Assembly (NCBI GenBank): GCA_951406725.2
Contig: OX597824.1
Coordinates: 75,826,001-75,890,000 of the forward strand
DNA from: Octopus vulgaris
Lineage: Eukaryota
Length of the DNA stretch: 64,000 nt
Direction: 5' to 3'
The first letter of the stretch is position 1. The number at the start of each line of letters is the position of its first letter. The position numbers were made by a program, and so were the translations under genes. Positions 20,004 to 44,310 of this stretch are shown one piece after another. The notes beneath the pieces are model-generated. The model did not search any database. It saw only the letters and a list, made by a program, of their open reading frames with translations, and was not told where the DNA came from.

Positions 20004-20034
<31 letters not shown>

Positions 20035-20256
20035 TCAATATAGGGTGGCAAAAAAAATTTTTGTAGAATTCTTTTGCCACCAGCGGCCTAGTAGGAAAAA
20101 ATTAAATAGTCATAAACTATTTTTACATTCAACATCACAATCAAGGAACGGCCATAATAGGCCATTCACCCACTAGAAATAACAGCCAAAAGCTTTAACC
20201 GCAAAATAACATTAATTCCGTAAACCAGGAGAAAATTGAAAAACTTTTACCCTGTA

Positions 20257-20363
20257 ATTTCTTAGACGATGCACCGTTTCATCTACCGTTTAATGGTAAA
20301 CTAACCTGATTAAATTAAATCAAGCCAATCCACCATAGGCCCTTAGACTCATCAGTAAGAAAT
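20257..20363 (-). ncRNA. Type I hammerhead ribozyme, extended stem II
   Basis: Reverse complement of 21003-21109. Confidence 0.88.
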
Positions 20364-20747
20364 AGCCAAGTCGGAACAGATATTTTTCACGAGGCATTCC
20401 TCTTGCTACCTCGGCAATATCTGACCTAAAATTTTCAAATCGTCGCACTCGCGCCAAATTTATCGGCAGCAAATAAATATAAGCCACCGATTCCATTACG
20501 GAACTAACCAGAAAATTCATAATTAATCAATATAGGGTGGCAAAAAAATTTTTGTAGAATTCTTTTGCCACCAGCAGCCTAGTAGGAAAAAATTAAATAG
20601 TCATAAACTATTTTTACGTTCAACATCACAATCAAGGAACGGCCATAATAGGCCATTCACCCACTAGAAATAACAGCCAAAAGCTTTAACCGCAAAATAA
20701 CATTAATTCCGTAAACCAGGAGAAAATTGAAAAACTTTTACCCTGTA

Positions 20748-20854
20748 ATTTCTTAGACGATGCACCGTTTCATCTACCGTTTAATGGTAAACTAACCTGA
20801 TTAAATTAAATCAAGCCAATCCACCATAGGCCCTTAGACTCATCAGTAAGAAAT
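20748..20854 (-). ncRNA. Type I hammerhead ribozyme, extended stem II
   Basis: Reverse complement of 21003-21109. Confidence 0.88.
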
Positions 20855-21002
20855 AGCCAAGTCGGAACAGATATTTTTCACGAGGCATTCCTCTTGCTAC
20901 CTCGGCAATATCTGACCTAAAATTTTCAAATCGTCGCACTCGCGCCAAATTTATCGGTAGCAAGAGGAATGCCTCGTGAAAAATATCTGTTCCGACTTGG
21001 CT

Positions 21003-21109
21003 ATTTCTTACTGATGAGTCTAAGGGCCTATGGTGGATTGGCTTGATTTAATTTAATCAGGTTAGTTTACCATTAAACGGTAGATGAAACGGTGCATCGT
21101 CTAAGAAAT
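21003..21109 (+). ncRNA. Type I hammerhead ribozyme, extended stem II
   Basis: Stem I ATTTCTTA/TAAGAAAT; core CTGATGA (21011-21017); stem II GTCTA/TAGAT enclosing a 19-bp hairpin; GAAAC (21086-21090); stem III ACG-GTGCAT-CGT; cleavage triplet GTC, cut after 21101. Confidence 0.9.
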
Positions 21110-21492
21110 TACAGGGTAAAAGTTTTTCAATTTTCTCCTGGTTTACGGAATTAATGTTATTTTGCGGTTAAAGCTTTTGGCTGTTATTTCTAGTGGGTGA
21201 ATGGCCTATTATGGCCGTTCCTTGATTGTGATGTTGAACGTAAAAATAGTTTATGACTATTTAATTTTTCCTACTAGGCCGCTGGTGGCAAAAGAATTCT
21301 ACAAAAATTTTTTTGCCACCCTATATTGATTAATTATGAATTTTCTGGTTAGTTCCGTAATGGAATCGGTGGCTTATATTTATTTGCTGCCGATAAATTT
21401 GGCGCGAGTGCGACGATTTGAAAATTTTAGGTCAGATATTGCCGAGGTAGCAAGAGGAATACCTCGTGAAAAATATCTGTTCCGACTTGGCT

Positions 21493-21599
21493 ATTTCTTA
21501 CTGATGAGTCTAAGGGCCTATGGTGGATTGGCTTGATTTAATTTAATCAGGTTAGTTTACCATTAAACGGTAGATGAAACGGTGCATCGTCTAAGAAAT
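21493..21599 (+). ncRNA. Type I hammerhead ribozyme, extended stem II
   Basis: Identical to 21003-21109, 490 nt downstream; predicted cut after 21591. Confidence 0.9.
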
Positions 21600-21717
21600 T
21601 ACAGGGTAAAAGTTTTTCAATTTTCTCCTGGTTTACGGAATTAATGTTATTTTGCGGTTAAAGCTTTTGGCTGTTATTTCTAGTGGGTGAATGGCCTATT
21701 ATGGCCGTTCCTTGATT

Positions 21718-21843
<126 letters not shown>

Positions 21844-22519
21844 TACATATATATATATCAATTAAGTAACAAGGGTGTCCAGGTATCAGTACATTATGCC
21901 TCTTTCAAGCAGCTCTATTTAATCGATGAATGAAAACATTACATCAATTTGAAATAAACCTCTCTCCTTGGGTGCAGACGACTATATAGATTGCCAACAT
22001 ACAGGATACTCCATTACAATTTTTTAGCAAATTTTTCATCAGCACTAAAGACTAAAATAATTACATTGCTTCTCTTTGCCATTTTGGTGGCAGAATGAAT
22101 TTAAGGAAAAAAATACTTAAAGCTTACTTTAATTAAGAGTGGCAGAAGAAAATAATGGGTGTCAAGATAGAGGAATGCTGATATAGCTACGTTCATCTTT
22201 ATCCTTATCATTTTTCAAAAGACTCAAAGCAGCATGTAGTCTAAACTCTTTGGAATTAAACCCATTGGAAATTGACAGTTAAGTTTTTGTTGGTGGTGAT
22301 AAATTAATTAATGTCAGATACTCACCCCTACCCCTATTTTACAGGAACCATAAAAGCAACCAGTTCTACATAAAAGAATATGTCTCAGACATTGCTAGTA
22401 ACATAATGATATATAGAGAAGGGGTGATAACCAGAAAGAGGAAAGATGGCAGTGACTTAACATATTATGATTATAAAATAAAAGGGGCCTAAAGTTGAAA
22501 ACAAAAGAGGTCACAATAA

Positions 22520-42139: not shown

Positions 42140-44310
42140 AAAGAATGGCAAAAAATTATTTCTGATGAATCTTCTTTTCGTGAAGATGATAATGAAAGTG
42201 ATCACGTCAGTATTACTTATTCAGAATCGGTTATGATGACAACAATGCTGACACAAATGATTCTTTAAACCCTTCAATAATGCATGCAAAGTATTACACG
42301 AAGGATAACTCTGAAACTGAAAGGACACAGGAAGAATGTAAAGTATTATTCGAAGGATAAGTCTGAAACTGAAAGGACACAGGAAGAATGCAAAGTATTA
42401 TTCGAAGGATAAGTCTGAAACTGAAAGGATACAGGAAGAATGCAAAGAATTATTTGAAGGATAAGTCTGAAACTGAAAGGACACAGGAAGAATGCAAAAT
42501 ATTATTCGAAGGATAAGTCTGAAACTGAAAGGACACAGGAGGAATGCAAAGTATTATTCGAAGGATAAGTCTGAAACTGAAAGGACACAGGAAGAATGCA
42601 AAGAATTATTCGAAGGATAAGTCTGAAACTGAAAGGACACAGGAAGAATGCAAAGAATTATTCGAAGGATAAGTCTGAAACTGAAAGGACACAGGAGGAA
42701 TGCAAAGTATTATTCGAAGGATAAGTCTGAAACTGAAAGGACACAGGAAGAATGCAAAGTATTATTCGAAGGATAAGTCTGAAACTGAAAGGACACAGGA
42801 AGAATGCAAAGTATTATTCGAAGGATAAGTCTGAAACTGAAAGGACACAGGAAGAATGCAAAGCATTATTCGAAGTATAAGTCTGAAACTGAAAGGACAC
42901 AGGAAGAATGCAAAGTATTATTTGAAGGATAAGTCTGAAACTGAAAGGACACAGGAAGAATGCAAAATATTATCCGAAGGATAAGTCTGAAACTGAAAGG
43001 ACACAGGAAGAATGCAAAGTATTATTCGAAGGATAAGTCTGAAACTGAAAGGACACAGGAAGAATGCAAAGTATTATTCGAAGGATAAGTCTGAAAGGAT
43101 AAGTCTGAAACTGAAAGGACACAGGAAGAATGCAATGCATTATTCAAAAGATAAGTCTAAAACTGAAAGGACACAGGAAGAATGCAATGCATTATTCAAA
43201 GGATAAGTCTGAAACTGAAAGGACACAGGAAGAATGAAACTGAAAGGACACAGGAAGAATGCAAAGTATTATTCAAAGGATAAGTCTGAAACTGAAAGGA
43301 CACAGGAAGAATGAAACTGAAAGGACACAGGAAGAATGCAAAGTATTATTCAAAGGATAAGTCTGAAACTGAAAGGACACAGGAAGAATGCAATGCATTA
43401 TTCAAAAGATAAGTCTAAAACTGAAAGGACACAGGAAGAATGCAATGCATTATTCAAAAGATAAGTCTAAAACTGAAAGGACACAGGAAGAATGCAATGC
43501 ATTATTCAAAAGATAAGTCTAAAACTGAAAGGACACAGGAAGAATGCAATGCATTATTCAAAAGATAAGTCTAAAACTGAAAGGACACAGGAAGAATGCA
43601 ATGCATTATTCGAAGGATAAGTCTGAAACTGAAAGGACACAGGAAGAATGAAACTGAAAGGACACAGGAAGAATGAAACTGAAAGGACACAGGAAGAATG
43701 CAAAGCATTATTCAAAGGATAAGTCTGAAACTGAAAGGACACAGGAAGAATGCAAAGGATTATTCGAGGGATAAGTCTAAAACTGAAAGAACACAGGAAG
43801 AATGCAAAGTATTATTCGAAGGATAAGTCTGAAACTGAAAGGACAGAGGAAGAATGCAAAGTATTATTCGAAGGATAAGTCTGAAACTGAAAGTACGCAG
43901 GAAGAATGAAACTGAAAGGACACAGGAAGAATGCACAGTATTATTCAAAGTATAAGAAGTCTGAAACTGAAAGGATGCAGGAAGAATGAAACTGAAAGGA
44001 CACAGGAAGAATGGAAAGTATTATTCAAAGGATAAGTCTGAAACTGAAAGGACACAGGAAGAATGAAACTGAAGGTACACATGAAGAATGCAAAGCATTA
44101 TTTGAAGGATAAGTCTGAAACTGAAAGGACACAGGAAGAATGCAATCGAAAGAACACAAGAAGAACTCCATCCTACATCAACAGCCTGGAACTTCCCATT
44201 TTGCGAGTAGATCTTGTGATTCCACTCTTTAATCATTTATATAGTTCACGAAGCCAAATTTCTTGGAAATAATCCAAATATGGACAAATGCTGAAGGAAC
44301 TTGGGTCTAT
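42140..44310 (+). pseudogene. piggyBac (PGBD4-like) transposase N-terminal relic split by a minisatellite
   Basis: Acidic ISDESSFREDDNESDHV and AKYYTKD before the array; TGRMQSK and QPGTSHFASRSCDSTL*SFI*FTKPNFLEIIQIWTNAEG after it. Confidence 0.6.
42286..44145 (+). repeat. 52-bp minisatellite (~35 units) with 25-bp sub-unit duplications
   Basis: Unit ttattcgaaggataagtctgaaactgaaaggacacaggaagaatgcaaagta; period 52 (aaggataa at 42301 and 42353). Confidence 0.95.

Follow-up and report, generated by a model that had tools for sequence, protein, structure and literature searches.

A young hammerhead-bearing retrozyme family of Octopus vulgaris, probably copied by a Penelope-like enzyme

The locus described here raises the question of what a type I hammerhead ribozyme with an exceptionally long stem II is doing in the genome of Octopus vulgaris, and whether its copies may cleave as dimers, as an earlier note on this DNA had proposed. 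It lies in the 64,000-nucleotide stretch that we analysed (hereafter the window), to which all positions refer. The hammerhead is one part of a mobile 490-nt unit, and the insertion anatomy of that unit was found to be more informative than the motif alone. We are fairly confident that the unit is a young, non-coding, non-LTR retrozyme, likely copied by a Penelope-like enzyme, with a hammerhead in every unit and predicted dimer cleavage.

The hammerhead and its 490-nt unit

The type I hammerhead could be located directly by reading the sequence of the + strand at 21003-21109. Its stem I consists of 8 bp formed by ATTTCTTA (21003-21010) and TAAGAAAT (21102-21109), followed in fold predictions by a small internal loop, and its core strands are CUGAUGA (21011-21017) and GAAA (21086-21089). 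Stem II spans 21018-21085, where five pairs between GUCUA (21018-21022) and UAGAU (21081-21085) enclose 58 nt. This content is made up of AGGGCCU, a 19-bp hairpin (21030-21048 with 21055-21073) closed by a 6-nt loop, and UAAACGG, the two 7-nt strands forming a 7 x 7 internal loop. The cleavage triplet GUC occupies 21099-21101, C17 being 21101, and the predicted cut falls between 21101 and 21102. All tested core positions (C3, U4, G5, A6, N7, G8, A9, G12, A13, A14, the A15.1-U16.1 pair and H17) were present, as were three stems with an open stem I, stem III being formed only in the dimer prediction. On rereading, the earlier description of the motif's position, its intact core and a 5-bp stem II around 58 nt with a six-wobble, 19-bp hairpin was correct. 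Its assignment to the kind of hammerhead found in Penelope-like elements (PLEs) and retrozymes on the + strand also stood.

The 19-bp hairpin comprises 13 Watson-Crick and six G-U pairs, with folding energies of -21.7 kcal/mol on the + strand versus -5.3 kcal/mol on the - strand, and the 126-nt hammerhead region gave a z score of -4.6 against 200 shuffles. The chance of all six mismatches being G-U is 1/64, assuming that each arose by transition; that every non-Watson-Crick position is a wobble was true of this subfamily but not of others. Here stem II opens with a G10.1-U11.1 pair in place of the usual G-C, a feature absent from the earlier note. Rfam model Hammerhead_1 (RF00163) matched four places in the window at 22 bits (E = 0.031), its gathering score being 34, and no Rfam match at gathering level was found in the 64-kb window; the low score is due to the long loop II, which is penalised by this 45-position model. 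Among the hammerhead features tested, the only ones lacking were the G10.1-C11.1 pair and a sufficient Rfam score.

In an alignment of 320 copies from 96 loci the hammerhead core was fixed, with N7 occurring as all four bases. N17 was C in 65 loci and A in 63, corresponding to a cut after GUC or GUA, and the variability at N7 and N17 matches positions known to be tolerant. The last pair of stem II (21022/21081) had changed from A-U to G-C in 26 of the 27 loci changing that pair; stem II was lengthened by one pair in six loci and its last pair was broken in six. Pair 10.1-11.1 was A-U in 73, G-U in 45, A-C in 4, U-U in 1 and G-C in none of 123 locus-level counts from 181 stretches. The absence of G10.1-C11.1 may slow the ribozyme. 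This pair is highly conserved in type I hammerheads, with known exceptions (PMC3088659 and the accessible part of PMC7229834), and unusual first pairs of stem II have been described previously (PMC3088659). The hammerhead widens the known range of variation in stem II and at 10.1-11.1, which alone would be of modest novelty.

Four hammerhead copies are carried by a head-to-head array of the 490-nt unit at 20027-21722. Copies 1 (20257-20363) and 2 (20748-20854) lie on the - strand; copy 3 is that at 21003-21109, and the identical copy 4 (21493-21599, predicted cleavage 21591/21592) also lies on the + strand. Numbering the unit from the predicted cleavage site, such that 21102 is position 1, the full unit from cut site to cut site (unit 1-490) occupies 21102-21591 on the + strand, with a folding z score of -6.8 and a G+C content of 36.5%. 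It is non-coding, the longest open reading frame having 66 aa (P = 0.068 in shuffles); this frame was rejected as a protein gene, its changes being mostly non-synonymous and the frame being broken in one subfamily. No tRNA was found in the unit. The tandem arrangement, the unit length of a few hundred bp, the single type I hammerhead per unit, the low G+C and the many loci are all features of non-LTR retrozymes.

Matches to the unit numbered 228 at 40 scored of 1,049 candidate places, and its subfamilies are about 3-10% apart. The pattern of core plus long stem II gave 2,502 matches genome-wide and none when read backwards, so the hammerhead is not a chance occurrence. Contigs from sequencing runs labelled as four different organisms also match the unit. 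None of the listed runs matching it was recorded as RNA. It does occur in contigs from four runs presumed to be RNA, with a summed depth far below that of a neighbouring repeat in three of them; such contigs give neither ends, strand nor level and bear on expression neither way. Several further features were observed. In contrast to the remainder of the unit, one hairpin region (unit 339-362, 21440-21463) has a dense cluster of indels and lineage-level changes. TTGATT, a candidate reverse transcriptase (RT) recognition word, lies a few bases upstream of both fixed ends described below (unit 120-131 and 224-236; 21221-21232 and 21325-21337) and also inside the stem II hairpin. Elsewhere in the window, positions 42284-43908 hold about 31 copies of a 52-bp unit in an array with strong strand skew.

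Predicted dimer cleavage and the long stem II arm

Stem III had been described as a minimal helix of 3 bp. It is indeed weak and palindromic, but four pairs (A-U, C-G, G-C and G-U) closing a UGCA loop can be drawn, and the whole 12-mer ACGGUGCAUCGU (21089-21100, + strand) is self-complementary, with a duplex energy of -17.5 kcal/mol. Co-folding of two copies gave a double hammerhead as the minimum, at -88.1 versus 2 x -39.3 kcal/mol, with a 12-bp stem III. The favoured fold of a single copy of this subfamily pairs GAUGA with UCGUC across the core, and forcing the monomer hammerhead costs 4.2-4.6 kcal/mol. In two A17 subfamilies this cost is close to zero, and dependence on dimers may therefore differ between subfamilies. 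The predicted probability of stem I ranged from 0.10 to 0.93 depending on context. Loop III was UGCA in 98 loci and UAUA in 29, with five other loops in one locus each; the change from UGCA to UAUA is a double one that preserves self-complementarity, and the non-palindromic UACA occurred in seven copies of one locus. The double-hammerhead co-fold and the switch from palindrome to palindrome support dimeric cleavage as a prediction, the dimer being formed by neighbouring units. Weak stems III with palindromic loops and predicted double-hammerhead cleavage are shared, in the accessible parts of the sources, with the dimeric hammerheads of newt and axolotl and the minimal ones of PLEs (PMC4209133, PMC7229834). 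Eight of nine predicted Xenopus retrozyme dimers were uncleaved in vitro according to the portion of 10.64898/2026.07.22.740005 at hand.

The long arm of stem II had been regarded as an insertion. This is unproven, since the search for a short-stem-II relative of the unit was negative: a short-stem-II pattern gave 26 matches (3 in the control), none of them akin to the unit. These matches do include a separate, older and canonical-looking type I hammerhead family, 70-80% alike (loci L226-L229, L231, L234, L235, L242 and L243), several members of which have inverted copies nearby.

The covariation check suggested in the earlier note, applied across genomic homologues, did not favour the hairpin. 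None of its 19 pairs showed a compensatory change, and the whole-structure covariation score was not above chance, being equalled by 131 of 500 shuffles; within the youngest subfamily, 168 copies were too similar for covariation to be informative. On 12 representative rows, 16 pairs of the arm were invariant, two had one-sided changes and one was broken in nine rows. Pair 21034/21069, which is U-A here, has A at 21034 in 41 loci and U at 21069 in 10, and is broken in most subfamilies. The inner 13 bp of the hairpin are invariant, a run of a length expected by chance with P = 0.29, and the inner 32 nt of the arm, including all five inner wobbles, carry no lineage-level change, compared with 75 variable columns.

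Across the whole unit, 19 of 87 lineage-level changes break confident + strand pairs versus 31.9 expected (P = 0.0005), while 14 break - strand pairs versus 20.4 expected (P = 0.046); pair-keeping changes on the + strand were slightly above chance (21 versus 15.7, P = 0.058). The deficit of pair-breaking changes being weaker on the - strand, + is indicated as the RNA strand whose structure is under selection. Selection on RNA structure, which had been claimed from the wobbles, was thus borne out for the whole unit and not for the hairpin. A-to-I editing was rejected as the origin of the wobbles: private changes were strand-symmetric (A>G 11 and T>C 14 among single-copy changes, 8 and 6 among locus-shared ones), with no signal.

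The long arm is most likely a conserved accessory helix attached to the ribozyme, and any catalytic role for it is putative. It is possible, albeit against our expectation, that the arm is instead a separate signal that overlaps the ribozyme and serves the RT-endonuclease, a ligase or, as DNA, a promoter. The inner 32 nt look like sequence constraint rather than pairing because the five inner wobbles are unchanged as well, and the 5' strand of the arm resembles a reverse CCAAT box. Against this, the invariant run is not significant.

We consider it unlikely that the arm is a working part of the ribozyme, with an internal loop that would dock against stem I and make rapid cleavage of the monomer possible. 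A 5-bp stem II followed by an internal loop, and a stem I followed by a small internal loop, approximate the geometry of a loop I-II contact, and GGCCU of the 5' strand of the internal loop is invariant while the opposite strand varies. However, subfamilies differ from one another at three positions of the 3' strand and at two of the 5' strand, the palindromes of stem III indicate dimers, and the search for pseudoknot partners of the internal loop returned only short, non-covarying candidates, including several 5-nt complements of the loop strands. The earlier suggestion that this loop supplies tertiary contacts accordingly found no support.

Insertion anatomy and arm ends

The array at 20027-21722 is composed of two 5'-truncated arms that meet head to head with a short overlap at 20956-20963. 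The left arm (20027-20963, - strand) comprises unit 283-490, 1-490 and 1-236 and ends at site B (GATTAATTAT) into (TA)n (20004-20026), while the right arm (20956-21722, + strand) comprises unit 345-490, 1-490 and 1-131 and ends at site A (GATTGTGAT) into (AT)n (21723-21858). Site A is unit 131 and site B unit 233-236, 105 nt apart. The 105-nt tail between them (unit 132-236; 21233-21337 on the + strand, with a 15-bp hairpin at about 21284-21320) is present at the left outer end (20027-20131) and absent at the right one.

This pairing of ends was found to be general. Among 102 arrays in 100/101 stretches, picked by similarity to the unit or core, 73 had one end at A and the other at B (64 by coordinate and 9 by terminal motif), and none had A and A or B and B; the remainder were one-armed (20), had an off-site end (8) or were cut by the stretch edge (1). 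Joining was 5'-to-5' in all 76 two-armed arrays. Genome-wide, 819 B and 818 A ends adjoin (AT)n, counted independently of the hammerhead. Among the first 88 and 100 ends listed, 38 of 39 neighbouring ends within 12 kb were outward A/B pairs, a count made partly on the same loci as the array sample. Arms of about 10-20 nt, which look one-armed in alignments, still follow the A+B rule (L035, L134, L142, L145, L165 and L273). Two insertions outside TA repeats have target site duplications (TSDs) of 15 and 14 bp, end homology included. The unit thereby displays an inverted 5'-truncated copy, a tail at one end only, a (TA)n target and a TSD, as in Penelope-type insertion. Junctions are spread over the unit; in most of them the positions brought together are unrelated and are linked by filler or by overlaps of 1-5 nt.

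Nine locus-private alleles were present in all copies of both arms and one was confined to one whole arm. Six others occurred in subsets on both arms, 147 in single copies and 25 in subsets of one arm, 13 of the latter coming from a stretch that holds two arrays. In long arrays L061, L134, L255, L153 and L156, alleles reappear at a spacing of two or three units, as would be expected if dimer or trimer circles had served as templates, or if blocks had been duplicated later.

The inner ends of the arms bear on whether the hammerhead cuts. Twenty insertions chosen for lacking a hammerhead have arms that stop just 3' of position 1. A follow-up sample took in every listed locus of contig C2 up to 108.7 Mb (49 loci, of which 44 were new). 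In it, 21 of 66 arms at risk ended at unit 1-36, compared with 5 of 71 in the preceding interval and 3 of 45 in the next 36 nt (background about 6.5%; Fisher P = 0.002 against the next interval). Both arms ended at unit 1-36 in 9 of 37 two-armed loci, and with 16 further C1 loci the count was 32 of 90 arms. The nominal P value (7e-10) is too small, as the 1-36 interval was set after the first twenty insertions and arms from one locus cannot be counted as independent. In one long array (L031) both arms start exactly at position 1, giving an exact palindrome at the cleavage site. The sample chosen for long arrays has inner ends throughout the unit, only slightly enriched at 1-35 (18 of 152). An arm ran through the whole hammerhead in 27 of the 49 loci, and through two cleavage sites in 14, which indicates that uncut multimers or circles are copied too.

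The simplest reading of the pile-up is that RT ran off an RNA 5' end generated by the ribozyme and that joining removed a few bases, and the position of the pile-up 3' of the predicted cut suggests that the hammerhead cleaves in vivo. A transcription start in the region of unit 1 is another conceivable cause. Stalling of RT on structure was rejected, the stronger 19-bp hairpin just upstream giving no pile-up (3 of 42, 37-72 nt past the site).

From this anatomy, we propose that a Penelope-type enzyme likely copies the retrozyme RNA from two fixed starts at once. The array would be transcribed into a multimer, in which two hammerheads are predicted by folding and loop covariation to pair via their 12-nt palindromes and to cut after GUC or GUA; a single copy from this subfamily would probably adopt the core-occluded fold. 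Judging from the arm stops, part of the RNA would be cut in vivo to unit length and the rest left uncut or ligated to a circle. On one and the same RNA, an enzyme suggested by the observed ends would then start reverse transcription from both strands of (TA)n, using one strand as primer at A and its partner at B, and the two cDNAs would be joined 5'-to-5' by the short homology or filler seen at junctions. Linear RNA that has been cut would yield short palindromes lacking the hammerhead, and long arrays like that at 20027-21722 would come from uncut or circular RNA. More tentatively, with rather less than even weight, a dimeric RT-endonuclease may straddle the 105-nt RNA element so that A and B are primed on the same RNA, the hammerhead deciding the outcome and the arm gating the choice.

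The inverted arm might alternatively arise from a single cDNA by fold-back or self-priming, with the endonuclease resolving the far end, instead of from two primers; we judge this improbable. Such a route has been proposed for rotifer PLEs from junction palindromes (in the part of PMC3846280 available), in 8 of 37 two-armed loci the 5' ends of the two arms fall no more than 10 nt apart in the unit, and L031 is an exact palindrome. Nevertheless, either arm may reach further (A in 17 of 37, B in 12 of 37), most junctions link unrelated positions through 1-5 nt overlaps or filler, and symmetric junctions are equally expected from two enzymes running off one RNA end. That the ribozyme no longer works and that the arrays were propagated or enlarged as a satellite, by DNA-level processes, is very improbable: the period-2 or -3 alleles of L061, L134 and L255, possibly local duplications, and the non-canonical 10.1-11.1 pair would fit, but hundreds of dispersed insertions have fixed outer and variable inner ends, the core is conserved between subfamilies 6-10% apart, and arm ends pile up at the cut site.

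Relation to Penelope-like elements and known retrozymes

No autonomous element sharing sequence with the unit was found in 50 GIY-YIG stretches (from 150 scored of 6,136 candidates), the trait looked for being sequence in common with the pLTR of an RT+GIY-YIG element. Intact-looking RT+GIY-YIG open reading frames are present, with GIY-YIG above the cut-off and RVT_1 just below it. Two such families have the same target and insertion anatomy as the unit and share no sequence with it; inverted loci L206, L208 and L215 carry a tail of about 30-38 nt at one end and none at the other.

The first of these families is young, with copies 99% alike (L215 at G000:C14:47992100-48002000, L046, L060 and L216), and shows an inverted 766-bp arm, a 30-nt tail and a (TA)n target. 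Its 3' region contains a minimal hammerhead-like motif, CCGAAGA (U4C), which reads CUGAAGA in an older copy (L174). The closeness of the retrozyme to RT+GIY-YIG elements at L046 and L060 was rejected as a partnership, these being separate insertions 0.5-1 kb apart. In the second family (L201-L213), many RT+GIY-YIG frames of 781 codons are intact, an overlapping frame upstream has at most 479 codons and the tail measures 38 nt; the long 3' region contains repeated words that resemble CCAAT and CRE motifs. No canonical hammerhead core was found in the 1.1 kb scanned for this family.

As far as the available parts of PMC7229834 and 10.64898/2026.07.22.740005 describe them, metazoan non-LTR retrozymes likewise consist of dispersed, tandem, non-coding units of <50% G+C with one type I hammerhead, and a link to PLEs has already been proposed. 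Unit length is 490 nt here versus 150-450 (PMC7229834) and 51-972 (10.64898/2026.07.22.740005). The present family differs from those retrozymes in its structured 58-nt loop II and lack of G10.1-C11.1. Fixed paired ends were not found for retrozymes in the accessible text of either source, and the word 'inverted' is absent from the main text of PMC7229834. The supplements of PMC7229834 and PMC4209133 and the tables of 10.64898/2026.07.22.740005 may contain long-loop or cephalopod hammerheads. The literature covered, which included few subscription papers and no supplements, held nothing on this family, on paired fixed retrozyme ends or on genomic hammerhead run-off.

With EN+ PLEs, as portrayed in the accessible portions of PMC8557442 and PMC3846280, the family shares a head-to-head inverted 5'-truncated copy, a one-end tail, (TA)n targets and a TSD; a hammerhead near the 3' end and two RT starts bounding the tail are also shared (PMC8557442, PMC3846280, PMC11167929). 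It differs in that the unit has no open reading frame, the tail is 105 nt versus 30-40 and the arms are often longer than one unit (same sources), and also, within what these sources hold, in the strict A+B pairing counted here and the genomic sign that cut RNA is used. PLE hammerheads have a helix II of 6-8 bp and a conserved G10.1-C11.1 (PMC4209133, PMC7229834, in part), as opposed to 5 bp, a 7 x 7 loop and 19 bp with R10.1-U11.1 here. For an Anolis PLE in vitro, the available part of PMC11167929 reports that two RT starts bound the tail and both target strands are extended, with no strand preference between the starts; uncut RNA was used, and no reads ended at the cleavage site. By analogy, the retrozyme family appears to work like a non-autonomous Penelope.

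The literature leaves open how inverted ends and tails of PLEs are formed, whether the hammerheads of these elements cleave in living cells and what enzyme mobilises animal retrozymes (PMC8557442, PMC11167929 and 10.64898/2026.07.22.740005, as far as available). The more than 800 scorable insertions of this young family bear on all three, through the pairing of starts, the run-off at the predicted cut and the Penelope footprint, and the 490-nt family supplies a small RNA substrate with natural variants for direct tests. If the more tentative version of the mechanism, with the dimeric RT-endonuclease, is true, cut linear RNA would give rise to dead, ribozyme-less palindromes and uncut or circular RNA to new source arrays, and the insertions would be a fossil record of the entire Penelope-type reaction.
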